Origin: Azolla caroliniana | Lineage: Eukaryota > Plantae > Polypodiophyta | Direction of reading: 5' to 3' | Assembly (NCBI GenBank): GCA_043228905.1 | Contig: JBHGNT010000008.1 | Span: forward strand, 3,472,001-3,536,000 | DNA: 64,000 nucleotides | Part shown: positions 3,481 to 64,000 of the stretch, piece by piece | Layout of the letters: the number at the start of each line of letters is the position of its first letter | How positions within the stretch are numbered: position 1 is the first letter of the stretch | Notes under the pieces: model-generated | Told to the model about the DNA's origin: nothing | Databases searched by the model: none | What the model saw: the letters and a program-made list of their open reading frames with translations, nothing else | Made by a program: the position numbers and the translations under genes

Positions 3481-3555
3481 TGAAAATCCACCACTATGTG
3501 CGGATCGTGAGGATGAACCGCCAGGGTTATGGACTAGAAGTGTCATGATATGGCA

Positions 3556-3610
3556 AGACTCGAACCCGTGACCTTATGTGACATGGGTCGAACTCTTAAC
3601 CATTACACTA
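3556..3610 (-). promoter_or_regulatory. tRNA-type Pol III A/B-box promoter inside the chromovirus 5' LTR, antisense (second copy ~14344-14398)
   Basis: Minus strand TAGTGTAATGG (A box, 3610-3600) and GGTTCGAGTC (B box, 3566-3557), starts 44 nt apart as in tRNA genes; the cloverleaf does not fold. Confidence 0.6.
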
Positions 3611-3849
3611 TCTATTGTAATACATAGAATATTATTTTTATTTAAGTTTTAGAAAATTAATGTATATTCCAGATTTCTCTGGAACATTCTAGAAGCTTCA
3701 GGACTACTCTTGAGAACACTATAAAAGGAGGCACAAGGCATTATTTCGAACCAAATCGGTTCAACACCAGTCTTAAGCCTCCTAGCATTCCTTGTATATT
3801 CTTCTCACATAATATATCGCTGTCATCATCATTTTCTCTCCCTCGATCT

Positions 3850-3858
3850 CTCACTCAC

Positions 3859-3890
<32 letters not shown>

Positions 3891-6800
3891 TCTCTCTCTT
3901 TCTCTTAGCATTTTCTTTCTTTCTGTGCATCTGTTTCTCTCCCTCCATCATTATGTACGTTCTATAGCTCATTGGAAAGCTCTTTCAGAGAGCTTTCTAA
4001 CGAATGTTTATTTGCTGAATTTCGTTGCTGGAGTGAGGAGTTATGAGCATTTTTGTCTGCAACCCTCTTTGCCCCACGGCTCCTCAAACTCAATGTAGAT
4101 TTTGAAACCCTAAATCGATTGAAAGGTAGATTCTACTTCTTCTATCATTTTATTAATAGTAAATATGCCAAGAGGAGTAAAAGCCAATGATGATGTGATT
4201 GAAAGCCCAAACAATCAAATGCATACATTGTTAATGGAAAAGATCGCAACTATGTATATCTCATTGCAAGAGACAGTGATGCATATGCAAAGCGAATTGT
4301 ATGCTTGTAAGGAGAGGGAATTAACTCTTCACCATACACTGGAAATGCAAAAGTTAGAGATGAAAGCTTTGCGTGAAGAACTACATGCAATGAAGAACAT
4401 GACTATTCAAATGCAAGATAATAGGATGGAAGGCAAATGTCGAAATAAAATCTACAATTGAAGGGAAGGAAGACGTGATCATGACAAGGTGGAAAGATGT
4501 TCTCTTAAAAGAAACACCAAAAATCACGCAAAAACATCCTAATACCATGAATGTGTTAGATGTAAAGGAGCAATATGAAATCGAAAGAAGAAAGAATAAT
4601 ATTGTCATTAGAGGTATGCAAGAGAATGAAATAGAGAATGCATTATCTCTTGGACAAAATATTACGAAATTCTTTGAGGATCACTTTGCTATGCGAGATG
4701 TTATTGTATATGCCGCACATCGGGTTGGCAAAAAGCAACAAGAGGGAAAGACATCTGGAGCTATTATTTGTACAATCCCCAATGAAGGTAAAAGGGCAAT
4801 GATTCTAGATAGTAGTAAGGTGTACTTAAATGGGACAAGTTATTTTGTAACGGAGGATAGAACTCCACAAGAGCAAGAACGTAGAAGGCAAGCACATGCA
4901 CCACGAAAAGCAAATCAAAATGCATAGCAAGCAATGACCTATGGGACTATAAGTGCTTCACGTTTGAAAGTAATGTTTTGGAATTGTAGAGGATATCCAT
5001 GGAATAAGGGTTTAGGACTCAATGATGTAGCTCAAGGTATGGAAATTATATTTTTGGCTGAAACATGGGAGCATGAGGCAAAACGTATACCTACGATAGA
5101 CGATTACCTCATAAAATCGATATGGCCTCACTCCAAAGGGAATATTGGGCGTGCCGAGATAGCATGTATCTACCATGAGAGCTTAGATAATTCTATCAAA
5201 GTATGCAAATATGATGACTATAAGAGATACATATGGATAGAGGTTAATTTGGGGAAAGAGAAGTTGTATATAGTTGCATGTTACATTCCTCACAAAGACT
5301 CAAACTACTATAGTAGGTTTGGGTTAGATTGTGATGATCCTTTTATAGAGTTATGCCATGATATACTTTCATTTGAGAAGCTTGGTAAAGTTTTAATTAT
5401 AGGAGACTTCAATGCAAGAGTGGAAATTTCCAAAACGTGGAGAAATTTGAAGAAAATGTAGTAGAACATTGTCTATTGCATGACTTAGAGGATTGTGTCA
5501 TGTCAGATTATAGAAAACTTTTGATACATATGCTAAATTGCACAAACTTGATTATCCTAAATGGTATAAAGGCATTCCCATTGACAAATGTGCTCACATG
5601 TTTACCATCCTTGGGTGGAGGAAGTGTGGTTGATTATGCATTAATGTTGGCATGTGATCTATCATTGGTGAATGTGTTTAAAGTTGGTTCTCTATCTCCG
5701 GACTCAGACCACAGGCCATTGTACTTAGAGTTTGCAATTCCACATTCCACTAGATGTCGTGAAGTGAAAGATGAAAAGAGATGTATCATCCGACCGTGCC
5801 ACGAAAAAGCTAAGATGTATGCAAATGAAGTGGAGAACCATTTGTTAAATTTCTCTCTAAGCAACGCTGTTAAAGAAAATTGGCAACATTTGAAGGATAT
5901 AATCCTTAAGGTTGGATATCAATGGTTTAAGAGACATGTGGGTGGGCATAAGGTGTTTAATTTTCCATGTAATTCTTGGTTCGGATGTATGTAAGATGTA
6001 TCTCAAATGGTTTAAGTCCATAGAAGGGGGAATGAAAAGATTGTTGCATGGCACATATACAAGAAAGTAGTGAGGAGAAAAAGAAGAAGATATTTCCAAA
6101 TGCAAGAGATGAAAAAGAAAAACTTGTTTAAGCTCAAACCAAAATTAGCATGGGGACAACTCAAGGGTAAGAAAGAAGATGTGAAAGGTCACTTTACAAA
6201 TACAAGAAAGTAGTGAGGAGAAAAAGAAGAAGATATTTCCAAATGCAAGAGATGAAAAAGAAAAACTTGTTTAAGCTCAAACCAAAATTAGCATGGGGAC
6301 AACTCAAGGGTAAGAAAGAAGATGTGAAAGGTCACTTTACAAATGAAGAGATGCTAGACTATGTACAAAGGTTATATATGCATGAAGGTGTGGCTCCTAT
6401 GGTTGAGAAAATTGAAACTCCATGCACTACATGTATCGATATTGATGATGTCAATAAGGGAATAAAGAATATGGCAAGTGGGAAAGCAATAGATTCAACC
6501 TACGTCTCAAGTGAGCTTTTAAAATGGACAATGCCACACACTCGTCATTGGATAATGACAATTTTAGAGCAAGCTATAAAACAAGGATTTCCAAATGATT
6601 GGCTTATGAATTGGATTAAACCAATATTTAAAGGCGGAGATAAGAATCAAGTAGCAAATTATCGTACAATAATGGTGAGCTCAACTATTGCTAAATTATA
6701 TAGTACTACTATGGAGCAAAAGATAAGCACATGGGCTGAGAGTACAAGCAAAAGAGCACTTGGGCAAGCCGAATTTAGACCAAAACACTCCACCGTGGAT

Positions 6801-8482
6801 CATTAGGTCACATTAAGAGTAATCATGGAAGAGAGTCGACTACAAGGAAAAACACTTTATTGTTGTTTTGTTGATTTCAAGAAAGCTTTTGATACCATAC
6901 CACGAAGTGAGCTTTGGAATAGAATGGTAGACATTGACATGCCATTAGAGTACCTAGTTGTGGTTGCACGCCTATATGAACAAGTTAAATGCCAACTAAA
7001 AATGGATAGTGGATTCTCAAAGAGCTTTTTAAGTAACATGGGGGTCAAGCAAGGATGTCCACTATCACCCACACTCTTTGGCTTATGTATTGATAAATTA
7101 GAAGAAGTGGTGAATAAGGTTGCAAGAGAAGAAGGATGGAATGGCCCCAATTTGATGCAACATGTTATCTTATTGCTTCTATATGCAGATGATGTGGTAC
7201 TCTTCTCATATGATGTTGATAGTATGCAACATTTACTTGGGGTATTAGAAGAATTTTGCCATAGTAGTGGACTAGCAGTGAATGTGGAGAAAACAAAAAT
7301 GATGGTAGTGCAAACCATCCAACCTCATCATTACCCTATGCTCACATATAAAGGTGAACATATACAAGTTGTTAAAAGCTTTAAATATCTTGGTATTGAT
7401 GTACCTGCCACAAATAAATGGAGTGCATGCTTTGATTCTAGACTCCAAGCTAGTTGGAAATCATATTACCTTTTGGAGAACCAATGCAACCAAAGTGATA
7501 CTTGTGGATGGGAAGTAAAATTAATGTTGTTCAATGCCATGGTAACTCAAGTATTGCTTTATGGAGTAGAAGTATGGGGTGGCACCATCTCTCTTAATGC
7601 ATGGAACGAGATTGAGAAAATTCAAAAGATGTTTTTGAGGCAATTAGGAGTTAAATGCACTACCTCTTACCAGGTTATGCTCTTGGAAACGGGTGTTCGA
7701 CCCATAGAACTATTGGCACTCCAAAGAGTATATAAATACATTACAAAAGTCAAGAATATGCCGAATCATCGATTACCACATCTTTCTTGGAATGTTGGAT
7801 GTAAGCTACAAAAGAATCATAAAAGTTGACATAAAGAAATGGTTTAGAAGATGGGGTGTGGATGATCTTTTAGAGCTTTCAGGCAATGCTATGCAATATG
7901 TAATGATTGAGGAAAGGTTGGTGGAATCATTAAGGATGAAGTGGGAGGATGCTAAGAGGACAAAGCTAGAATACTACATTGCAAATGTCAACCCTAAATG
8001 TTGGTCTCAATATAAAGCAAGAATGTCTATTGATCGTATCCAACCTTATCTCATTACCAATATGAGTAGCAATGCTCGTAGAGCCCTTACACTACTTCGC
8101 ACTCGATCTCACAAGTTAGGTATTGAAGTTGCATCATGGTATCAAAATGTAACAAATTTGAAGACATGTAAAGTATGCAATGAAGGCATGGTAGAGGATG
8201 AATGTCACTTGCTCTTCACATGCTCGACATATAGTGCAATTCGTTCAAGATATGTTGACATACTAAGAGGGAGTGATAACTTAAGATCCATACTTAAGAC
8301 ACCACCTAGAAGGTTGAGCTCATATGTGTATGCTTTATTAACACATAGAGACTTTGTGCTTCAACATATGAATACCCCTTCTTAGGAAGGAGACATATAT
8401 CAAGAACACATGTATACTCTAGTCCCATAGGTCAAAATTGGCCTCTTTATGGACGATAAAAATTCTAATTCTAATTCTAATT
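3850..8482 (+). mobile_element. Near full-length LINE (non-LTR retrotransposon, RTE-X-like), degenerate
   Basis: ORF1 4165-4927, frameshifted (coiled coil then RRKNNIVIRG RRM-like motif). ORF2 4934-8385 in pieces: APE endonuclease (WNCRG, ETW, GDFNA, VDY, SDHRP), RT (GVKQGCPLSP, LLYADD, FKYLG) and C-terminal CKVC...ECHLLFTC. 3' tail (AATTCT)3 at 8461-8482. Sits in the (CT)n tract of the gypsy 5' LTR; the 5' boundary is approximate. Confidence 0.92.
6058..6343 (+). repeat. 143-bp perfect tandem duplication inside LINE ORF2
   Basis: tacaagaaagtagtgagg...gtcactttacaaa at 6058 and 6201; frameshifting length. Confidence 0.9.
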
Positions 8483-10165
8483 CCTTCTCTCGAGTGTTCT
8501 ACACCCTCTATTCCTCTTAGTACTAATTTATTCTCTGTCTCGGTACTATTCCTGACAGTTTGAATCGATTTTCCCTCCTTTCCTCTTCCTTTTATCTTCT
8601 TACATATCCCCTTTTTTCCGGTCTTCTTTCCGGTTTTCCTCATCTTCTTACCCCTTTTTTCCCTTCATACTAATCCTCTTATCCTCCCTAGCAAAATGGA
8701 AATTGTTAGCACTCAGGAATACCAATTTGTTTTCTCGAAGCTCCAGTGCTTAAAAGAGAAATTTGTAGCACTAGAACAAGAAAATCACCATTTGCTGGGG
8801 GATCTTCAACAAATAGCGCTGGAAAAACAACAACAACACGGGGAGCTGACATTACATGTACAACAACTTGAAGCGACTATTGTATCACTACAACAACAAG
8901 GATCAAGCACTCAAGGGATTCACAAAGAACCTAAGATCGGTCTTCCTGCAAAATTTGATGGGACCCAATCATAGTTTAGAGGTTTTCTGAATCAGGTACA
9001 TTTAGTGATTCAAATGCATCCTTCTCGATATCCCACCGATGCATCATGAGTGGGACTAGTAGGCACTCTACTTAGTGGCTCAACATTGGCATGGTTCGCT
9101 CCGTTGTTAGAAAAGGAATCTCCATTACTAAAAAAATTTGAAGAATTTATAAGGGAGTTTAAAACCTGTTTTGGAGATACTGACAGCATAAGGACAACAA
9201 TCAACAAAATCCGACGATTACGCCAAGGTGATTCTCTAGCCTCCGCATAGGCTGCAGATTTCCGCCTACTCGCCGCCGATATCCCTTGGGATGATCAAGC
9301 ATTGATGGAGCAATTTCGTTATGGTTTACGCAACAATGTCAAGGATTTACTCTTGACCTTCCCCAAAGAACCAAAGTCATTAACAGAATCAATCAGTCGC
9401 GCGGTGAGATGCGACAACCGCCTTTTCGAACGACATTTGGAACGGCAATTCCAGATGTCGAAGGCAAGATCAGAGCCCACCTACGCCTCAGTGGTAGCGA
9501 AACCTTTTCCGAGGGAGTCATATAATGCGTCTCCAGTGAATACTCCGACTCCGATGGAGATTGACACTACACGTCGTTGCGGACCATTATCGGAAAAAGA
9601 AAAGCAGCGATGTCGAGCAAATCGACTATGTCTTTATTGTGGTGGACCAGGGCATATTGCAGTAAATTATCCCTATAGGCCAAGAAGACAGGTAAGCCAA
9701 ATAGTTGCTAGTTCTAATTGTACTAAACCCGAGTCTATTTCAGTAGGAATATCTTATAGTCCTAATAGTACTAATAGCCGAAATCTAGCGAACAAATTTG
9801 ATGTCCTTAGTTAGTTAGAAGAAGAGTTAAACGACAAGTCTAGCCAAAATAGGAGCCGTTTGGTTGGACAGTCCTAGATCTGTGCAACCCATTAGTGGTT
9901 CCATTCCCTCTAAGCAAGTTAGCAATGTGTTCATAGCCCAAGTAACAATTAGTACTAAAAGTACCCCTCTAGTACGTGTCTTAACACTTCTAGATTCCGG
10001 AGCTACTTCTTGCTTCATGGATAGGAATTTTGCCCAAGCTCATCAGATCTCTCAAAAAACTCCCGTGTCCAGCCTTTGTAGTAGTCATTGATGGTCGTCC
10101 CATTGCTTCCGAAAATATCATAGAAGAGTCAGAGCCCGTTAATATTTTCCTAGATAATCTAGCAT

Positions 10166-11082
10166 TGTCGTGTGGTGCATGACACACATGCCAAGTGTCG
10201 GGATGTGCGCGTCACAAGTGCGGACAAGCACCGGGCCTCTATACGCTAGTGGTTATGGAGGATTGACTATGGGATTTCCGCGTCTACGGGTTGGTCGAAC
10301 GGGACCACCAAGGTCTTTGACCGAAGAGAATGAATCGGGTGAGTTGTGCCTGTAAGGAATTGGCCGTTTAGGTTTATTGTTAAGTCGTCCTTTGTTGTCA
10401 AAGACGCACCCGAACCCGACTCAACGGCACGGTGGATTGACGTGTAGGCAGTTGAAGTAACGCACTAATGTGGTTGAGAGTGTGTGAGAGAGAGAAACGA
10501 AAATTGAGGAAGTGTTTAAGATAGATAAATAGATAGACGGATTGAAATTCCAATTCTACGTTTGAACCCTTGACTTTAATTTAGAAAACCAAGACACATC
10601 ACCAATAAGATAACTAGGTTTTCTTATTAAAATATCTTGATTTAATCCATAGCTTGATTGCTTGATACATAGCTTGTTTGATTCATCGATTGATTTCCAC
10701 TTATATAGATGCCCCCATGCATATGTGCATGTGAGGGTGTAAGACATGCATACAATGCATGAAATGCATGCAATGCATGATGACCATACACCTCATCCAA
10801 GCTCTCATTATGAGCATTCATATGTGAAAAACATAATGATAGTCTAAAGAAATAACTTAGCCTAATGGTAAGTCAATTGTCTTCTATCTTGGAGGTGCAA
10901 GGTTCAATACTTGCACCCCTTCGTATGCTTGAAAATGCAAATAGGCTTTAGGTGTTCTCATTACATTTATATTTACAACATACTAACGTATGAGTGTAAC
11001 CATCACCCCTTTCATTCGTGTGCACATTACACCTTCTCGATTCCACACGATTTTCACACCGTTGCCGAAAATCTTCACGACA
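10166..11082 (-). mobile_element. Solo LTR of the Trp-primed gypsy family, inserted in the chromovirus protease
   Basis: Termini TGTCGTG...CACGACA; flanks GCAT/GCGT (4-bp TSD with one mismatch). Removing it restores FLDNLA-CVVSFNI. Shares blocks with the LTRs at 56614-57350 and 59711-60370. Confidence 0.85.
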
Positions 11083-14000
11083 GCGTGTGTAGTATCATTT
11101 AATATAATTAGTATCCCAGAACATCCCATTGTGTTAGGATTACCATAGTTCAAATTACATAACCCAGACATAGATTGGAGAACAAGAGAAATCCGGTATC
11201 GACAAGCCCGAGGATCTACTCATAAGATTGCAACCATTTCACTACATTAGTTGCGGGAAAAAGGATGCAAGGAAGAAATGTTTCTCTTCGCAATATCAGT
11301 AAAACCCTTCGACACCACTAAAGAGGAGTCCACCATTGAACTTCCAAAGAAGTATCATCATTATGCCGATGTGTTCAATAAAGTACAAGCCAATACGCTT
11401 CCTCACCATCGACCGTATGATTGCCCCATCGATTTACAATGGGAAAAGAGCCACCATGGGGACCGATCTACAATTTTTCACCAACCGAGTTAGAAGTCCT
11501 TCGAGCCTATATCAAGGAGAATTTGGAAACTGGTTTCATTCGGCATTCGAAATCTCCAGTCGGCGCACCCATTTTCTTTGTCAAGAAAAAGGATGGATCA
11601 CTTCATCTCGTTGTAGATTACAGTGGCTTGAATAAGGTCACCATCAGAAATAGGTATGCACTTCCCCTTATCTCAAGTCTTTTAGAACGGATCAATGGTG
11701 CAAGGTTCTTCACGAAGATCGACTTATGGGGAGCATAAAACCTCGTACGGATACGACATGGAGATGAATGGAAGACCGCGTTTCGCACCAGATATGGGCA
11801 CTTCGAGTATACGGTCATGCCGTTCGGCCTCATTAATGCGTCAGCAGTCTTCCAGCACATGGCAAATGTTATATTCCGAGATCTCTTAGATGTTTGTTTG
11901 ATCATCTATTTGGATGATCTATTAGGTTATTCCAAGACCCAAGAAGAGCATGATTCTCATGTACTATTAGTACTAAAACGATTTCGAGAACATGGTCTTT
12001 ATGCAAAGTTGGAAAAATGTAGTTTCGGGTGCAACCAGGTGGAATTTCTAGGCTATGTCATCTCCTCGGAAGGCATCTCCATGGATCCAACTAAGGTCAA
12101 AACGGTGGTAGAGTGGCAAACTCCGCGTTCGTTGCTAGATGTGCAATGCTTTTTAGGCTTTGCCAATTTCTACCGCAAGTTTATACAGGATTACTCAAAG
12201 TTTGTTCTGCCTCTCACACAACTTACTAAGAAGGGACAATCGTTCGTTTGGTCTGAAGAAGCAGACATGGATTTTGAGAATCTTAAGAAGGCATTTACAT
12301 CGGCTCCAATTCTAGCTCACGTTGATCCGGAAAAACCATTCATCATGGAAGCGAACGCGTCGGATTTCGCATTGGGTAGCATTCTGTCACAACAAGGTAA
12401 TGATGAAAAGCTACATCTTGTGGCTTTCCACTCATGCAAGTTTGACGCCGCCGAAATCAACTATGAAATCCATGATAAGGAGCTATTAGCAATAGTGGAC
12501 TCTTTTACGCAATGGAGGCATTTTCTAGAGGGATCCTCTCATCAAGTCACCGTATTCAGTGATCACAAAAACCTTGCCTACTTTCAGAATGCTTGTGTGT
12601 TAAATCGACGTCAAGCTCAGTGGGCCCAATTCCTCACGCGTTTCGACTTCAAAATTACATATCATCCGAGGAAGCACCAAGGGAAGGCAGATGCATTATC
12701 ACGGCGTTCATATCTAGCACCACGTCCTGGCGAGCCGGCTTTCGATAACCAAAAACAAGTAATCTTGGGACCGGCACGACTGCAAGCAACACAGGTCTTC
12801 GGCATGCCCTTGGATTCCGACGTTATCGATACCATACGTGAGGACTTGAAGACAGATGCTTTCGCCCAAGCAATTCTAGCACAAATTGATCCCTCTCGAG
12901 CATCTTGTTCACAGTCGCAACAACCAGGTACAGACTATCGACAATTCAAATATCATGATGGATTACTATTCTTTAAGAAACTGTTGTATGTTCCTAATGG
13001 TTCTTGCCGCCTTCGAACTGTCCAAAACTGTCATGACACATATACAACTAGGCATTTTGGTAGTACTAAGACATTAGATTTAGTACAAAGATCATTCTGG
13101 TTGCCCTGTATGCGACAATTTGTCGAAGATTTTGTTCGGACTTGTGATACATGTTGCAGAGCAAAAATCGCAAGGCATCATCGATATGGTTTATTAGAAC
13201 CATTACCAATTCCAAGCAAGCCGTGGCAATCCATTGCTCTAGATTTCATCACAGATCTTCCAATCTCAAAGGGATTCAATGCGATTTTAACAGTAGTAGA
13301 TCGATATACGAAGATGGCTCATTTCCTACCATGTACTAAGGAAATCTCCAGTAAAGAAACCGCCGAAATTGTCATGCGTGAAGTATGTCAGCATCATGGC
13401 CTTCCTGATAATATCATCAACGATCGTGGACCCCAGTTTGTCTCGAAATTCTGGAAGCACCTGTTTAAAATGCTCAATGTCACTTGTAACCTCTCCTCCA
13501 TCTACCACCCGCAAATCGACGGCCAAGCAGAACGAACAAATCAAACGTTGGAGCAGTATCTTTTGGTGCTTTCTAAGCTATCATCAAGATGACTGGGCAG
13601 ATATTCTCCACTTCGCCGAATTTGCCTATAATAACTCTATCCACTCATCGACTAAAGTTACGCCATTTTATGCTTACACGAGTTGTCACCCCCAGTGGTG
13701 TGTATTTGAAACCCCAGAGTTACCCACAAATCCTTGCGCAAAGGATTGTTTGGAGCATTTACGCAAGATACAAGCAGATTTATCTACTCATCTACAACAA
13801 GCTCAACAAACACACAAGGTTTACGCGGATCGTCATTGGTTCCATCCAGTTTTAACATTGGAGATCAGGTATGACTACTACGACACATCAAGACTTCTCG
13901 CCCATGCAAGAAGTTGGATTATCGGCGATTAGGTCCTTTCCGTATTATCGGAAAGATTAATGGTGTCTCTTTTCGTCTCAATCTACCCCTGTAACGTCGC

Positions 14001-14328
14001 ATACATCCGGTGTTTCATAGTTCTCTCCTCAAACCCTATCAAGACAACACCATCTTAAGACGTATTCCACAACCTCCACCCCCGATCGAACTTGAGGATG
14101 GACCTGAGTAGGAGGTTGCCACCATCCTCTATTCCAAGATTGTTCACAACAAGCTCTACTATTTAGTCGATTGGCTAGGATATAGTCCCAGTGAGCGTAC
14201 TTGGGAACCAATAGAGAATGTGACCAATGCTCGTGCTCTTCTTGAAGACTTCAATCGTCAATATCCAGATAAACCGGGTCCTCAATACAAAACGACTCGT
14301 GAGACTCGTCGTTTTAAAGGGGGGATAG

Positions 14329-14749
14329 TGTCATGATATGGCAAGACTCAAACCCATGACCTTATGTTACATGGGTCGAGCTCTTGACCATTACACTATC
14401 TATTATAATACATAAGATATTATTTTTATTTAAGTTTTACTATAGAAAATTAATGTATATTCCAGATTTCTCTGGAACATTCTAGAAGCTTCAGGATTAT
14501 TCCTGAGAACACTATAAAAGGAGGCACAATGCATTATTTCGAACCAAATCTGTTCAACACCAGTCTTAAGCCTCCTAGCCTTCCTTGTATATTCTTCTCA
14601 CATAATATATCGTTGTCATCATCATTCTCTCTCTCTCTCTCTCTCTCTCTCCCCCCTTCTCTCGAGTGTTCTACACCCTCAATTCCTCTTAGTACTAATA
14701 TTCCTCTCTTAGTACTAATTTCTTCTCTGTCTCGGTACTATTCCTGACA
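14329..14749 (+). repeat. 3' LTR of the chromovirus
   Basis: Direct repeat of 3541-3845 plus 8483-8557, about 5-6% diverged by eye; preceded by a PPT; contains TATAAAA. Confidence 0.93.
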
Positions 14750-56613: not shown

Positions 56614-59600
56614 TGTGAGACACTGAGACACCAACACAAAATTACGCAATTCAAGTACTCGCGTTGTCGTGAAGATGCGTGTGTGTGCGTGCTTCGCTTG
56701 AGCGGGACCACCGGGGTCTCAGACCGGGGAGGACGTTCGCGAAATTGTCGAAAAGATGACGATGTGTATGTAGGAATCGAGGAAACTAATGTCACACTTG
56801 AGAAGATCAAAGATTTTACACTTGAGAAGAAGATAGATTTCAAGAAGAATATTAAGAAGAAGATTATAGATGGTGATGATAATGATATCACATATTGAGC
56901 CCCCCCGTTACACAAGCCTTACGAGGGTTTTTATAGGTCTATCCATGCACAAAACCATGGGCTTGGACCCATGGTTTTTGGGCACATGGTTTTTCTTGTG
57001 GCATGCACAAAACCATGGGCTTGGAACATGGTTTTGTGCACACGGTTTTTCTTGTGGCATGCACAAAACCATGGGCTTGGAACATGGTTTTGTGCACACG
57101 GTTTTGTACAGTTGTTTTCCTATGTCTTTTGAATATGAAAAGAAATTTACATAATATCGAAAGTACTTGGTAGTTGCCCTAATGGGAAGATAAATGTCTT
57201 CTATCCGAGGTGCAAGGTTCAAATCTTGCTTGCACACCTCTATATGCACTCGAATACCACTAGGCCTTATGATAATTTTCATATTTATAATCGTTTGTGT
57301 AATGTGCGTGGAACTACACTATTTCACAGTTTCTCCCACCAAATCGCACATCCTTCAGCATGTGCCAAGAAGAAAAGAGTGATGTGGTGGACTCAAAGGT
57401 GGTTGGCCTTTGATTTCTTTCTTTCTTACGCCTCGCCTACGTCGGCCTTTGTCCTCCATTTTGAGCACATGCATTCCTTCCACCCGAACCATCATCACCA
57501 CCCGATCAACCATATCATTCGCTCGCCCTTCGCATTGCCATGACCACTTTGCATAGCCCCTTTTGCTCCTCCTGAGCGTAACCCTTCATGCATCGTACAT
57601 GTGCCGCTTTCATCTCGACCATCTCCTTGGTCATCAAACTTCCTCCGATCGGCCTTTCTCGTCTCATTCTTTCCTTTCCTCATGCTCACTAGCCTCGACC
57701 GGGTGTCGCGACTCGTCTGCTTCAACCTACGGTTAGGTCGGCTCAACTTCTGTCTGGATCGGTCTCGACCAATCAACTTCTCGCTTGGTCAGCCTTCGTC
57801 CGGATTTGCATTCAGCCAAATTGGACTAAGATGAACGACTTCCATCCGGGTCGGCTTCCGTCCGGGTTTCGGTTGGGTCGGGCCCGATTGATTAGTTCCC
57901 GTCTGGAGCGGCTTCCGTTCGGGTCGGAATACTAACCACGTCATCTTCCATCCGGATTGTATTCCGGTTCTTCCTTTCTTGCCGTTCTCTGGCTCTTCAT
58001 CGAACTCTATTGTAGCTTTGTTTTTGGTCTCCTTGTTGGCCACTGTTCCTCTATATGCAGGGGCTTCGACCCTCATCTCCTCGTCGCCACCTTCCATCTC
58101 TCCGGTCTTATGTTGGCTCTCGGACACAATTGCTGAAGTCTCCGGAACCGGTGTGGAGGGATCCCTTCGTCTGTGGTCATTCACCTCGTCTTCCTCATCT
58201 CCGTTTTGGTCCTTCAATTTCTTGTTGCCACCTTCCGTCTCTCCAATCTCACATTGGCAATCAGGCACAACTGCCGAAGTCTCAGGAACAATTGTGGGGA
58301 GAGCCTCAGGCACCATCGGTCACCGTCTTTTCATCCATAGCCATCTTTCGCTCAATGTTGTTATTCACATTGTCTTCAATATTTGCTTCCCCACCACTTT
58401 CCGTCTCTTGGGTCTCATGTTGGCTCTTGGACACAACTTCCGAAGTCTCTAGATCAAGTGTTGGGAAAGTCTCGACATGGTCATCCGCCGTGGACTCTTC
58501 CATAACCATCTGCGACTCGATGTCGTTCCTTGTGACTACCGCCTCAATCACGTTGACCTCACACTCTTTACATCCCTTGATCACAAAAGCTTTCCTCATG
58601 CTTGCACCTTCATCACTCGATATTTCGGACACAACATGTGTTCCGAAATGCTCATCCACTCTTAAAGCAGCATTTCCCGTTCTTGAGTCTTCGGCCTTTC
58701 TCTTGATCTTCATTCCTCCGCAAGTCGAGAAGGTGGCTTGTTTCACACCTTCTCCCGTGGTACTGTCGTACCAAACCTGGGCCTTCGTATTGGCCGTATC
58801 ATTAGTCTGCATTTGTCGGGAGGTTTCCTCTTCGTCGATCACCAGTTGCCTCGGTTTTGGCTCCATTCTAAGCTTCTCTTTGGCCTTGACTTGCACCTTT
58901 AAACTCTTATATGCCTCCTTTACGAAGGCTTCTATGTCGAGTACCAACCTATCTCCCCACTTCGAGCTCTCTTCCTTTAGTGGTGGCACATTGTTGCATG
59001 TCGTTCCTCTTCGATCTTCCCTCATGGGTCGTGACAATGTCGACAAGATTCCTATCTTCCTCTTGTCATATCGCCGGCATACTCTTTCAACTTCGGCCCA
59101 ATTCTCGGTGAGGCCATTTGCTCCATCATCGTCTTCAAGTTGGATTCCAAGTGCCTTCCTTTCCTTTCGATCAACTGACTTTACAAACATAAGGACTTTA
59201 CTCATCCCCACCAATCCTTGATCCCTCTCCGAGAGTTGAGCGAAGCGACACTCAAACTCAATAAATGCATGCATAACACTCTGGTGAGTCTTTGTTCATG
59301 ACACCCATTGGTCAAACTCGTATAGACCTCGTCTCTTTAGCTCTTCATAACCATATACCTCTCGTAAAGCTTCCTCGAAGGACACCCATGAATCGTGAAG
59401 TTTTTGAAGCTCTTTCATCTCTTTGTAGATTGGTTCGGCCACCACTCGACAAAAGTACTCTAGCCTCATTGCTTCGTTCAAACCTCTCGAATCCATCTCG
59501 GCATTGTATGCCTTTAGAAAATTTTGGACTATGCCCCCGTCGAAATAGTCGACTTGCTTGACCACGCTTTCGACGGCTTGTTGGGCTGCATCTCGTCTTT

Positions 59601-60370
59601 TACCTTCTCTCAAAAATTCCATCATCATTTTCGACATTGCCTTCATGAGATATTCCTCGTCCATCTTCATCCTCCCCTACCGCTCTTCACGTCGGGTTCA
59701 CCACTTAAGATGTCGAGGAAATCCTCGCGTGTTTGCGAAATGAAGCGGGACCATCGATGTTTTTTAGCACCGGAAGGATTCGATGTTTTTTAGCACCGGA
59801 AGGATTCGATGTTTTTTAGCAGCGTAAGCGAGAAAGTATTTAAGATAGATAGATGGATGAACAGAGAGAGAGTGAGATTGAGATAGAGATTGAACCCTTG
59901 ACTTTAGGTTTACGAGACAAGATACATCACCATTAGGATAACTCAGATCTAGTTTCTTTTTTTACTTACATCACTTCCCTCCCTATACAAGCCCAACTAT
60001 AGGCTTTTATAGGTCTCTCCATGCAAAAACCATGGGCTAAACCACGGGCTAAAACTGTGGGCTGAAACCATGGGCTAAAACCACGAGTTGAAACCATGGG
60101 CTAAAACCATGGTTTTGTGCCCACGGTTTCTATGTATTTGCTTCCTACAAAATACTGAATATGAAAAGAAAATATACAAATTCTATAACACTCAGTAGTG
60201 GCTTTAGTGGTAAGTTAATTTGTTTCTTATCTTGGTGGTGCAATGTTCAAGCCTTGCTTCAACCCTTATGTATGCACTTAAATGTTGCTAGGCTTTAGTC
60301 TTATTTTTATATTTACAATTGAGCACACATCACACGTGCACATGTTTTAACTTTACATCTAGCTTTTCTG
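56614..60370 (-). mobile_element. Non-autonomous (gag-only) Ty3/gypsy-type element with a tRNA-Trp PBS; LTR-like ends 56614-57350 and 59711-~60370, the latter cut by another insertion
   Basis: PBS TGGTGAACCCGACGTGAA (59703-59686) matches the 3' end of plant tRNA-Trp; gag-like ORFs 59296-59670 and 58306-59274 start right after it; no pol motifs. The LTRs share TTTTATAGGTCT..CCATGC, AAAACCATGGGCT repeats and a tRNA-like block. Confidence 0.75.
58306..59670 (-). pseudogene. Frameshifted gag-like ORF of the Trp-primed element
   Basis: FDGGIVQNFLKAYNAEM...WVSFEEALREVY and FIEFECRFAQLS resemble retrotransposon capsid motifs; split between frames. Confidence 0.6.
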
Positions 60371-60371
60371 T

Positions 60372-63300
60372 TGTAGGTATGGCTGGACTAGCCGCAACAC
60401 AGGTGTCTATCCGACACTTCTCCAAAGGGGTGGTAGGGATAGGATGTTAATACACGCGTATGATAATTACACTTAAGCACAGACGAAGACAAGATTAATC
60501 AGCATAAGCAAAACTATATTAATTCTTCGCGCTTTCATTACAAAACATCGGATCCTTTTATAGGCATCCGGCCAGATTACAATCGGTGCTCGGTAAGCAA
60601 CCGTTAACCGAAACCGAATCGGTTCGGATCCGGATCGGTTACAACTACCGGATCCGTCCCTCCTAATAATTCTATTCCTATTTCTATATTTATCCGATCC
60701 GACCTTGCTTTCCCATTCGCCTTCTCTGACCGGCCAACACATGGCACGCCCGTGGGAAAGTGCATTGCACTTCGAACCCACAGCCGGTCTCAGTCTTCCT
60801 CCAAATTATCCAGCAAACTCCGCTCAGAGGTTTCAAGTGTTGTTTTGCCTGTGCCGTCTCCGACTTCCGATTGGATGGGCTGCCTTTTCGCATCTTGCTG
60901 CTCCGACTCTGCTTCTACCGGTAGTACCGGTGTTTCTTCTGTATCCTGTCCGGGTCTGTCCTGCTCTACCTCCGTTCCGTTCCCGGTATCGCTTTCTCCG
61001 GTTTCCACTGGCTGTGTCCTTTCCTCTCCAGATTCGGTACTTCTCTGTCTCCACTCTGCATCATCCCCGGCATCAACCTGCTCTTGCTCCGGAAGTTCTT
61101 CCTCGGGTAATTCTTGTCGGGTTGCATTGTTGGTTGGGTCCTCTTCAGCCGGTCGCTCGCCCTCACTAATGGAGATCGGCGTTGTGTGTCCCTCGGCTTC
61201 CTGTCGCAGTCGCTCCTTCTCGTATCCTTCCAATTCTAGTTGGGTTTCGAGCTGCCCGTCATCCAACCTCTCTACTAACCCTCGGATTTCCTTGAGATGC
61301 TCTCCTGCTAGAGCATAGAAATCCTCCGACAATTCTTCCCGGATGTTGACGATACTTTCTTCGTCCATTTTATAGAACCTATCTCCGGTTTTCTTCCGAT
61401 TCTCTGCATCAGCTCGGAGTATCTGCAGTTCAGCTGCCTGTTGTGCCCATTCCCTCCAGAGCTTCTCCGTGCTTTCATTTATGCTGGCCTGAGCTCGGGT
61501 ACTCCAACTTGACATGATGAACTTAATTCGGTCAACCCCTGCTTTAGCCTGTTCCGAAGCTGCTTGTTTTTCCTTTCTTATCCGTTTGATGATGTCGGCC
61601 ATTAACTGAGCTTGAGCTTCAGAGTCGATTTTTTGCTTGTCACAGGCACTCCGCCATTTGTTGATTTCGAAAGTCGACTTCACTTTTTCCTCGTTCCAAC
61701 TCTTTGTCAGCTCCCCTACTTTCTGCCGAAGTACTTCCATCTCTTTTCTTTGTTCCGACGTCAAGGTCTTCTCCGCCGATACTTCCTCCCTTGCTTTGGA
61801 CAATTCCAAGCGGTTTTCCTTGAGCTGCTCTTTCAGCTTCTCTATCTGTCGGTCGTACGTTGCTGCCTGATTCTTGATGTCCGACGTGGCCTGTTTATAA
61901 TCCTTACATAGTCTGTCGAATTCCTCCGTCTTCTGTTTTAGGCGTCGGTTCGCCTGAGCTCGCAACTGATCATCCCGGTCCTTTTGTTGTCGGAGTTCCT
62001 CTCGCAACCGCTCAATTTCCTGCTCCATTCGTCGGCGCAGCCTATCTTTTTCCTTTTGCAGTGTCCCGTTTTCTTCTTGTAGTCGGTCATTGGTGGCTTT
62101 GCTTCGGCGAAGGCCTTCCTCCATTCGCCGTCTGTCGTCTTCTACCAACTTCCGCTGCTCTCTTTCGTTATCTCTCAATGCCTCCTGAGCCTGTAATTCT
62201 TCTTTCAAAGTTGCTATTAACCTCTCGGTCTCAGGGCCGGTTTGCAAGGCCTTCTCCGTTTCTGGTTCGGCTTGCTTTTCTGATGTCCCGACCGGCTCGG
62301 TGCCATCTTGTGCTTGTCGGTTGCCTTCTTTTGCCTGTGCTAACTCTTCTTGCAGCTCATTTACTTGTGCCCGGAGCCTGACCATATCCTTAGTCGTCGT
62401 CCTAGTCACTTCTTCTCTTTGCTCCTCCTCTTTCTCCATCTGGTCTGCTACTCCCGACAACTGCCCTGACAACCACCTTAGCCATTGTGCCTTTGTTCTG
62501 CCTTCGTTGGTGTCAGCAGGTGTGCCTAGCTCCGGCTGTTTTTCCGGCTGTTTCTCCGGCCTCTTCTCTTGTTCCGGCGCTTGTTCCTTTCTTTGTTCTT
62601 CGAACTCCGCCGCCGTCGGTTCCGGTACTGCCGTCTTTGGTGCAGACGAACCTTCATCCTGTGTCGCTTCTGTTCCGGTTACTGGAGGCGGTTCTTTTAC
62701 CCGTTGCTGAGTTTCGTCCGCTGTTGGGGTCGGTCTTGTCGCTCGTTTCTCCTTTCCTTGCCTGGGTGGTAGTATTAACATCGGTTCGGATGAGTCTTCC
62801 TCTGTTTCTGTGTCCTCCGTCGGTGCCACTATTGGTTCCTTTACTGGTACCGGTTCCGATTCGAGCGTGACTGGTTCGGTGTCGGTTTGCCTCTTGCTGG
62901 TCTTCTTTGCCAGCTTCTCCTTGCCTTTTTCCGCCTTTTTCTTCTTCGTTGTCGGTTGCTGTTGCTGTTTCTGAGGCTGCCGTGATGAGCCTTCCTCCCG
63001 TTGCTGTCGGGAGGAGTCTTCTTCCCTCGGTTGTCGAGATGAGCCTTCTTTCCGCGGCTGTCGGGATGATCCCTCTTCTGGCGGCGCTTCTTCTTCCTGT
63101 GTCCATCCTGGAGTGTGTTTCTCTAGGATTCGTCGGCGCTTCATGGTTTGCTTCGGGGTAGTCTCCTGCCGACTTCTTTGCTTGTGCTTGATGGGGGACA
63201 CCGGTGGGACCAACACTGTTAACCATTGGGATATTCCGGCCCATGGCTTCTTCCCTTCCACCAAGTGCTTTATCGCCTCTTTCAGTCCTTCGGTGATGAA

Positions 63301-64000
63301 GTGGAGCCAGTCCACCTGCAGGCCTTCGAATGTCGCGATGACGATCGCTGCTCGGTATTTGGCTATGGCTGCCGGACGAGGGTTCACGAACCCATACTCC
63401 ATCAGGGCGCGGGCCACCTCTCCGAACAGCAGGTTCTCTCCGCCCTGTGTGCGATACGCCTTGCTGCTGAGGGAATATTCGCCGAAATACTCGAAGAATA
63501 TTTGGCTCGAGGGTAGCTCTATTGTTTGAAGTCCACCCTCCGCAATCCCGGTGAGCGCTTGTACCGCTCCTTCGGTGACTTCTGCCAGGTCCACTGCTGT
63601 TGCCGCCTGCTCTGGTTCCTTGTGTGGTGGAGCGTCAGCGACCCGCAGCAGCCCTCCTAATCCGTTCTCTGTCAGCCATTGGCGCGCTCCTTCCGACAGT
63701 GCCATCGCTTCTTCTTCCTCTGCTGCTGCCTGTGGTCTGAGGTCGGGGTGTGGGTGTTCTGCGCGTCGGATCTCGCTGTCTTGAGCCTGCGTTTGCTTGT
63801 GGGAAAATTCGTAAAAAGTGAACCCTTCTCCGGTTCTTCCTTTATATAGTGGCGTTTCCCTTGACCCGCCTTTTCCTCTTTTTCGCGCGTGCGTATCTTC
63901 TGCCATAATTAGCATGTCACTCTTTAATTTTGGCGTCTGCACGTCCTCTGCCTCGAATAGCATGTCCTATTTTTGGCGCCTGCGCATGGTCTGTCATGAA
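60372..64000 (-). mobile_element. 3' end of an LTR retrotransposon (3' LTR 60372-60643) carrying a large extra ORF; continues beyond the window
   Basis: TGTAG...TTACA termini; minus-strand TATAAAA near 60555; purine tract AGGAGGGACGG about 10 nt from the LTR; GC-rich internal region. The partner LTR is outside the window. Confidence 0.65.
60790..63963 (-). CDS. Uncharacterised retrotransposon-associated extra ORF (1057 aa; likely start at 63705, giving 971 aa): globular N-terminus, low-complexity linker, long coiled coil, acidic tail
   Basis: Uninterrupted 3.2-kb ORF with no gag or pol motifs; TATATAAA at 63848-63841 upstream of the MALSEG ATG; VDWLHFITEGL segment resembles plant retroelement accessory ORFs. 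Confidence 0.75.
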   Translation of the reverse strand: MLFEAEDVQTPKLKSDMLIMAEDTHARKRGKGGSRETPLYKGRTGEGFTFYEFSHKQTQAQDSEIRRAEHPHPDLRPQAAAEEEEAMALSEGARQWLTENGLGGLLRVADAPPHKEPEQAATAVDLAEVTEGAVQALTGIAEGGLQTIELPSSQIFFEYFGEYSLSSKAYRTQGGENLLFGEVARALMEYGFVNPRPAAIAKYRAAIVIATFEGLQVDWLHFITEGLKEAIKHLVEGKKPWAGISQWLTVLVPPVSPIKHKQRSRQETTPKQTMKRRRILEKHTPGWTQEEEAPPEEGSSRQPRKEGSSRQPREEDSSRQQREEGSSRQPQKQQQQPTTKKKKAEKGKEKLAKKTSKRQTDTEPVTLESEPVPVKEPIVAPTEDTETEEDSSEPMLILPPRQGKEKRATRPTPTADETQQRVKEPPPVTGTEATQDEGSSAPKTAVPEPTAAEFEEQRKEQAPEQEKRPEKQPEKQPELGTPADTNEGRTKAQWLRWLSGQLSGVADQMEKEEEQREEVTRTTTKDMVRLRAQVNELQEELAQAKEGNRQAQDGTEPVGTSEKQAEPETEKALQTGPETERLIATLKEELQAQEALRDNEREQRKLVEDDRRRMEEGLRRSKATNDRLQEENGTLQKEKDRLRRRMEQEIERLREELRQQKDRDDQLRAQANRRLKQKTEEFDRLCKDYKQATSDIKNQAATYDRQIEKLKEQLKENRLELSKAREEVSAEKTLTSEQRKEMEVLRQKVGELTKSWNEEKVKSTFEINKWRSACDKQKIDSEAQAQLMADIIKRIRKEKQAASEQAKAGVDRIKFIMSSWSTRAQASINESTEKLWREWAQQAAELQILRADAENRKKTGDRFYKMDEESIVNIREELSEDFYALAGEHLKEIRGLVERLDDGQLETQLELEGYEKERLRQEAEGHTTPISISEGERPAEEDPTNNATRQELPEEELPEQEQVDAGDDAEWRQRSTESGEERTQPVETGESDTGNGTEVEQDRPGQDTEETPVLPVEAESEQQDAKRQPIQSEVGDGTGKTTLETSERSLLDNLEED

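Follow-up and report, generated by a model that had tools for sequence, protein, structure and literature searches.

The window, a 64,000-nt stretch of the Azolla caroliniana genome, contains LTRs of gypsy retrotransposons with blocks resembling the internal promoter of a tRNA gene, which raises the question of what a Pol III-type module pointing away from its element would be used for. Three A-box/B-box pairs had been listed by a sequence-only reading, and all three are present as written: TAGCCTAATGG at 10858 with GGTTCAATAC at 10901 (spacing 43 nt), TGCCCTAATGG at 57175 with GGTTCAAATC at 57216 (41 nt), and TGGCTTTAGTGG at 60199 with TGTTCAAGCC at 60244 (45 nt). The corresponding spacing in host tRNAs is 43-45 nt in 94/98 copies. 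A regular-expression scan of the window finds 9 distinct A/B sites, compared with 2.2 (sd 1.6, max 8) in 100 shuffles. With a weight matrix trained on 98 host tRNA or tRNA-like copies, 4 sites reach at least 20 bits (0.08 expected from 12 shuffles) and 8 sites at least 16 bits (0.67 expected from 12 shuffles), and such pairs thus occur well above background frequency. Six of the eight fall within LTRs, while the remaining two (5752, 34113) are consistent with the chance rate. The three antisense modules are imperfect, with 16-22.5 bits versus a host tRNA median of 29; at the level of sequence, they are confirmed as tRNA-type A/B-box modules lying antisense in U3 of gypsy LTRs (Table 1).

Table 1. 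Carrier elements and modules in the window
Feature	Position	Strand	Details
Solo LTR, Phygy-type subfamily A, 917 nt	10166..11082	-	within pol of Tcn1 element; 4-bp TSD GCAT/GCGT
Antisense module, apparently tRNA-derived, LTR A	10858..10911	+	A box 10858-10868, AGGT 10893-10896, B box 10901-10911; 21.9 bits
Likely Pol II TATA box (putative function), LTR A	10700..10708	-	~150 nt from A box
Second, weaker module, LTR A	10558..10612	-	sense to element, downstream of TATA; 14.2 bits; homologue in locus L102 21.9
3' LTR, subfamily C	56665..57338	-	~30-nt deletion at U3/PPT junction
Antisense module, LTR C	57175..57226	+	22.5 bits
Internal region, ~2.4 kb, of gag-only (non-autonomous) element	57339..59703	-	PPT remnant near 57336-57349
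Gag-like ORF, one stop	58306-59676	-	inside the 57339..59703 interior
PBS, presumably tRNA-Trp type	59692-59703	-	inside the 57339..59703 interior
5' LTR, subfamily B	59711..60368	-	outer ~145 nt beyond window (L106, ending at 6514), past nested gypsy
Antisense module, LTR B	60199..60254	+	16.0 bits; B box of this copy with G>T change
Second module, LTR B	59886..59940	-	sense, downstream of TATA (60004-60013); 17.3 bits
Antisense module, 5' LTR (start 3541) of Tcn1 chromovirus element	3556..3610	-	26.3 bits
Antisense module, 3' LTR (14329-14672) of the same Tcn1 element	14344..14398	-	21.8 bits
Chromodomain of Tcn1 element	14112-14279		Tcn1 element spanning the LTRs from 3541 to 14672

A functional tRNA gene was considered for these blocks and excluded: ARAGORN finds 0 tRNA genes in the window, Rfam returns no RF00005 match at E<=10, the anticodon stem is 49% paired, and covariation is absent. 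The GCAAG/CTTGC pairing, previously described as a T-arm-like stem, is not a canonical T-arm, as its loop has 8 nt, and it shows no covariation either. The minus orientation given to the LTRs is borne out, with PBS, gag-like ORF, PPT and TATA all in agreement, and hence the block is antisense. The LTRs had also been regarded as three copies of one family; a homologous module is indeed found in all three, but the copies represent three subfamilies (A, B and C). A location near the 5' end of U3 describes the window copies, in which the A box lies 188-312 nt in, but not subfamily E, with its module 500-750 nt in. The module position follows the TATA box more closely than the LTR end.

The modules at 57175 and 60199 flank one chimeric element, the 5' LTR of which is split by a nested ~10-kb gypsy. 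In the chimera (56665-60368), the 5' LTR comes from subfamily B and the interior and 3' LTR from subfamily C, with the junction near the PBS, and the TSDs are unmatched. The nested gypsy (window 60369-64000 and L106:1-6366) has a 5-bp TSD, TTTTC, a 1,921-aa gag-pol frame and an additional 1,058-aa frame with no Pfam match. The Tcn1 element of the window is likewise interrupted, by a LINE-like insertion with endonuclease and RT matches at ~4100-9000.

By TSD and domain content, and presumably by PBS, the module carriers match Phygy-type gypsy elements. The outer flanks of these LTRs read NCGN in 47/67 cases and the deaminated forms NTGN/NCAN in 15/67, and a 4-bp TSD with at most one mismatch is found at 14/17 solo-type LTRs. 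The pol of subfamily E contains RT, RNase H and integrase, with no family match to Chromo or to a second RNase H. In the Phygy-type elements at window 59692-59710 and in L047, L024 and L095, the LTR end and the PBS are separated by 4-7 nt, a gap longer than usual. The PBS itself, TGGTGAACCCGAC, is conserved and presumably of the tRNA-Trp type, in agreement with the Phygy row of the table in Neumann 2019. That work (PMC6317226) characterizes Phygy by a 4-bp NCGN TSD, a tRNA-Trp PBS and the lack of an extra domain, and Tcn1 by a chromodomain, the same traits as in the carriers described here, with the Trp type of their PBS presumed. The definition of Phygy is based on a moss, and mosses and club-mosses both have Tcn1. 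Unlike in the present elements, an LTR Pol III module is not mentioned in the descriptions of either lineage, as far as the consulted passages and supplementary file 5 of that work are concerned (PMC6317226).

Genome-wide, a 17-nt core of the module has ~3,470 exact matches in three forms (1,648 TTCGA, 1,070 TTCAA and 751 TTTGA, the first counted with a slightly looser pattern than the other two), while reversed-pattern controls give 0 matches. Among the first 30 of the 1,648 TTCGA matches, 29 are further Phygy-type LTRs (subfamilies E and D1-D3) and one is another repeat, which has no A box. A repeat sharing the pre-B/B-box core without an A box is seen both in the genome and in metagenome contigs (L250, L292, L309). 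Gag-pol is encoded by subfamilies E and D2, whereas A, B, C, D1 and D3 carry only gag or have an integrase remnant left; confinement of the module to non-autonomous elements was considered and rejected on account of E and D2. The LTR pairs of carriers are 87% to 100% identical, and carriers thus range from old to very recent insertions. The module is not universal: most Phygy families, abundant ones included, do not have it, and it is found in 2/30 Phygy LTRs sampled by PPT, with a pattern that misses D, and in 0/28 sampled by integrase. Neither the one copia LTR examined nor the LTR of the nested gypsy has it.

Orientation, which the sequence-only reading had named as a point to check, is strictly antisense in 23/23 element-scale Phygy loci with landmarks (24 examined) and in five clusters of Tcn1 elements. 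These clusters comprise the 26 Tcn1-type 3' LTR starts examined; the median score of the antisense module is 21-26 bits in four of them and 10 bits in one, and in sense orientation, the median of the best scores does not exceed 4.1 bits. The Tcn1 modules, or their B box, lie 5-52 nt from the LTR end. Two more Tcn1-like variants came from a 1.38-Mb scan of a sequence set enriched by sampling, and because they were found by their boxes, the conservation of these boxes is given by construction. A scan of viral contigs for the Tcn1 module gave 0 matches.

The block had been described as one of the best kept in otherwise strongly diverged LTRs, and an alignment of 54 complete LTRs of subfamilies A, B and C (90 fetched) agrees: the best-kept 20-nt window, 10886-10905, has a between-subfamily identity of 0.93 versus an LTR mean of 0.335, and the 10 nt ahead of the B box, within this stretch, reach 0.95 between A, B and C. 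Inside each single subfamily, the excess conservation is small or absent. Such a lack of excess within young subfamilies would also be expected of a neutral relic left by an old insertion of a tRNA or SINE and inherited by descent, a reading in line with the many Phygy families without module and with the integrase tree, where one gain or loss explains the spread. In this tree of 24 rows, from which L194 (too short) and L093 (no match) were left out, carriers and non-carriers are one change apart in 200/200 bootstrap trees; as the tree is unrooted, the single change is a gain in one clade or a loss in the other.

Box-specific conservation largely refutes the relic, which is very improbable. 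A metagenome scan with the B-box-side pattern only returned 64 matches, of which 33 are Phygy-like, 29 are other sequences and 2 were dropped as truncated. The Phygy-like matches, to be taken as relatives and not as independent trials, are 72-92% identical to LTRs of this genome. An A box of at least 5 bits is present in 24/29 distinct Phygy-like matches versus 3/24 of the others (Mann-Whitney p=3e-7) and 2.9% of shuffles, and the A-B spacing is 43-44 nt in 27/29 Phygy-like matches. Among 21 clustered representatives, the flanking LTR identity has fallen to ~0.3, the background level, and yet the A box, which lies outside the search pattern, persists. The module is likewise kept between autonomous lineages with pol only 61% identical, across Tcn1 families that are 53-61% identical in integrase/chromodomain, and in all five Tcn1 clusters. 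The boxes and an AGGT are its only invariant parts, while the spacer is free to vary. Among 90 subfamily-E copies, selected through a motif that lies elsewhere than in the module, substitution at non-CpG sites amounts to 1.2-2.0% in the boxes and the pre-B stretch versus 2.9-4.4% in the flanks. These patterns support selection on the module in the LTRs of both gypsy lineages, which are deeply separated. Two metagenome sequences (L297, L311) carry a full Phygy-like A/B module with no Phygy LTR match, and possibly belong to a SINE or LTR of another plant.

That two gypsy lineages had gained an outward-facing module independently was the original proposal. Two lineages do carry it, with strict orientation and pol sequences that are 23-25% identical between Phygy-type and Tcn1 elements, but their independent acquisition is not supported. 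AGGT at tRNA positions 44-47 is found in 12/12 module lineages of both groups versus 8/84 host tRNA copies, and it lay outside the scoring matrix and so was not selected for. In addition, the modules of Phygy D1 and D2 match that of Tcn1-F1 outside the boxes (p ~0.003 each, uncorrected), and this likeness extends nearly to the Tcn1 LTR terminus. In locus L093, a Tcn1 element is inserted co-oriented in a Phygy LTR, which makes capture feasible. Plain inheritance from a gypsy ancestor of both groups is an unlikely explanation, as the carriers are far apart and most Phygy families have no module; capture between LTRs or a shared donor, on one side, and independent gain, on the other, are about evenly balanced. 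The module itself appears to be tRNA-derived, judging from its sequence. In a comparison with 13 isotype labels, some of which denote mislabelled degenerate or organelle-type copies, Arg(TCT) is the best match on the D and anticodon arms (score 49, p ~0.001 with the boxes fixed), while Gly, Lys, Thr and Tyr also give p<0.01; AGGT is missing from 24/24 Arg(TCT) copies.

The arrangement of the LTR bears on what the module may do. In Phygy-type LTRs, the core lies ~150-290 nt from the likely TATA box, which is downstream, and 128-754 nt from the LTR end; the TATA boxes were called by motif, and D3 and 4/6 D1 copies yielded none. Past the TATA box, subfamilies A and B and the LTR of L172 (at L172:803) contain another module, in sense orientation. 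This second module is also seen in L102, whereas it looks decayed in E and C showed none. L172 additionally carries, at the usual place, two antisense modules that differ in sequence. With modules upstream and in part also beyond the TATA box, the Pol II promoter would have one or two Pol III-type cassettes at its sides, pointing away from it.

Established Pol III type-2 geometry dictates on which side of the boxes TFIIIB is placed. If the A and B boxes of the cassette bind TFIIIC, TFIIIB would accordingly sit on the TATA-facing side, back-to-back with the Pol II promoter of the LTR. The assembled complex could maintain this promoter in an open state and protect it against silencing or read-through from the flank, and any short antisense RNA would be a by-product. 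Such a cassette, a DNA-level TFIIIC/TFIIIB platform acting in cis as a barrier or helper for the LTR Pol II promoter, has about an even chance of being the right reading. It fits the observation that the boxes have been maintained together with their spacing and orientation, in contrast to the sequence, fold and end of the RNA. In yeast, assembled Pol III complexes are described to alter neighbouring Pol II transcription (PMC4228148). Several observations argue against this platform: abundant Phygy families do without the module, and the module of the 3' LTR lies head-on to the Pol II that makes the genomic RNA, a cost that the model leaves unexplained. The imperfect boxes of the three window copies, the mutated B-box CpG of many E copies and the motif-based TATA calls count against it as well. 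A pure barrier, as exemplified by ETC sites, would work without an A box and in either orientation, which leaves room for a function of the RNA.

The cassette might therefore be a real Pol III gene, with a short antisense RNA of ~70-200 nt as its product, serving for example as small-RNA precursor, decoy or self-limiting antisense signal, in the manner of the Pol III miRNA cassettes known from foamy-virus LTRs. Contigs of runs X1-X3, the type of which is presumed, span the module region but carry no information on strand or transcription, and they count neither for nor against such a product. Conservation of the A box and of orientation would be explained in this way, 4/8 predicted single transcripts fold with z below -2, and a T4 run is located 22-49 nt past the B box in subfamilies D, B and C. 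The folds differ among lineages, however, the other 4/8 transcripts are unremarkable, and the RNAalifold consensus of the modules is -0.44 kcal/mol, with no covariation above shuffles. Neither the RNA sequence nor the terminator position is constrained; the first T4 run is found 0 to 349 nt past the B box, depending on the lineage, so that there is no conserved RNA 3' end. An RNA product is unlikely to be the reason for retention.

A mutational hotspot in subfamily E could also speak for transcription. The CpG of the B box is changed in 30/88 E copies, with 20 post-insertion changes on the tree versus a median of 4 at 24 other CpGs, and the same hexamer elsewhere in E copies is changed in 3/71 cases. 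Read on the module strand, the changes are biased to C>T (22 TG : 8 CA, p=0.016), as transcription-associated mutagenesis could produce, and the hotspot may reflect transcription or protein occupancy, given the processes described in PMC6130373. In 30 Tcn1-F1 copies, however, it is absent, with 28% changed versus 20-50% at 7 other CpGs. An apparent 15:1 TG bias in Tcn1 was rejected as query bias, since a sample chosen by an A-box-side motif gives 5:2. Protection of the B-box CpG by TFIIIC was rejected as well: this CpG decays faster than others in E and, being mutated in 30/88 copies, is not protected once integrated.

A different step or factor might be involved: the block could be bound by a host protein and so enhance the Pol II promoter, or it could serve integration as a tether for TFIIIC on the cDNA, the resemblance to a tRNA then reflecting origin only. 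The invariant AGGT, outside the classical boxes, the well-kept 10 nt before the B box and the closeness of Tcn1 modules to the LTR end would all suit such a role. Two separate boxes at exact tRNA spacing, maintained while the spacer sequence turns over, are difficult to reconcile with it, as are the E modules that lie 500-750 nt from the DNA end, and a role of this kind is quite unlikely. In an extension of the preferred reading, a DNA-level platform beside the Pol II promoter, the two lineages may carry a self-contained insulator of the TFIIIC/Pol III kind and have exchanged it, possibly in the direction from the end of the Tcn1 LTR to Phygy U3. This insulator would bracket the promoter, allow the elements to resist silencing and spread thousands of mobile Pol III boundary sites through the genome. 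This wider proposal is tentative and somewhat doubtful; if true, an anti-silencing strategy would be encoded within the LTR itself.

The system had been proposed as possibly undescribed, which is upheld in part: an antisense module in two gypsy lineages was not found in the literature searched, but tRNA-derived LTR promoters are known from Helenus (PMC10886601). The full-text search, most subscription papers and Repbase lying outside it, gave no description of a tRNA-type module lying antisense in gypsy LTRs of mosses, and the term 'polymerase III' has 0 occurrences in the searchable text of a paper on moss TE expression (PMC7466625) and of a Tcn1 survey (PMC2864245). In Kojima 2024 (PMC10886601), Helenus/TRIMp3 elements are described as carrying a tRNA-derived sequence in their LTRs, with boxes A and B conserved but no functional tRNA, and as experimentally untested; 'not a few' Repbase LTRs are said to resemble part of a tRNA. 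The tRNA-derived A and B boxes in an LTR are thus common to both systems. Helenus elements, however, are non-coding TRIMs of 311-1263 bp, whereas the carriers described here measure ~3-8 kb, encode gag or are autonomous, and retain a TATA-like motif. The Helenus promoter is thought to drive the element's own RNA and is sense in the only plant family listed there (Helenus-1_SMo of Selaginella), while the present module is antisense at all landmarked loci. Autonomous partners are expected there not to share long LTR stretches with TRIMp3 (PMC10886601). Helenus is the nearest class, yet size, coding capacity and orientation place the present elements outside its definition.

Cassandra TRIMs likewise have a Pol III promoter that originates in a gene for a small RNA and was captured in a plant LTR, but it is a 5S type-1 promoter that starts the RNA of a miniature element, in contrast to a tRNA type-2 cassette that faces away (PMC10886601). 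The miRNA cassettes in foamy-virus LTRs are similar in being A/B-box Pol III units beside the Pol II promoter of an autonomous element; their products are structured pri-miRNAs with terminators, and their transcription by Pol III has been shown, while the present modules are known from sequence and have no conserved fold or terminator (PMC3993851). Extra-transcriptional Pol III complexes and tDNA or SINE boundaries resemble the proposed action on neighbouring Pol II transcription and chromatin (PMC4228148, PMC8136502). As reported there, these boundaries are host genes or free SINEs of yeast and mouse, with CTCF indicated at a mouse B2 SINE boundary (PMC8136502), whereas the present cassette is built into an LTR and copied along with it.

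Known Pol III promoters of plant LTRs drive tiny non-coding elements, which a backward cassette in a full-size or autonomous gypsy cannot do, and its retention thus suggests that retrotransposons use the Pol III machinery in another way, too. Provided that TFIIIC binds, Phygy elements alone would add more than 3,000 mobile TFIIIC sites, likely far above the number of tRNA genes, and these could shape chromatin boundaries in TE-rich chromosomes. The sister families without module would constitute built-in controls for testing Pol III elements as plant barriers. Also seen in the genome are clusters in which numerous tRNA gene copies, in part degenerate, lie together; Lys(TTT), Arg(TCT), Ile(TAT) and Thr(TGT) predominate (L107-L156; e.g. 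L139, L143, L144 and L151-L153).
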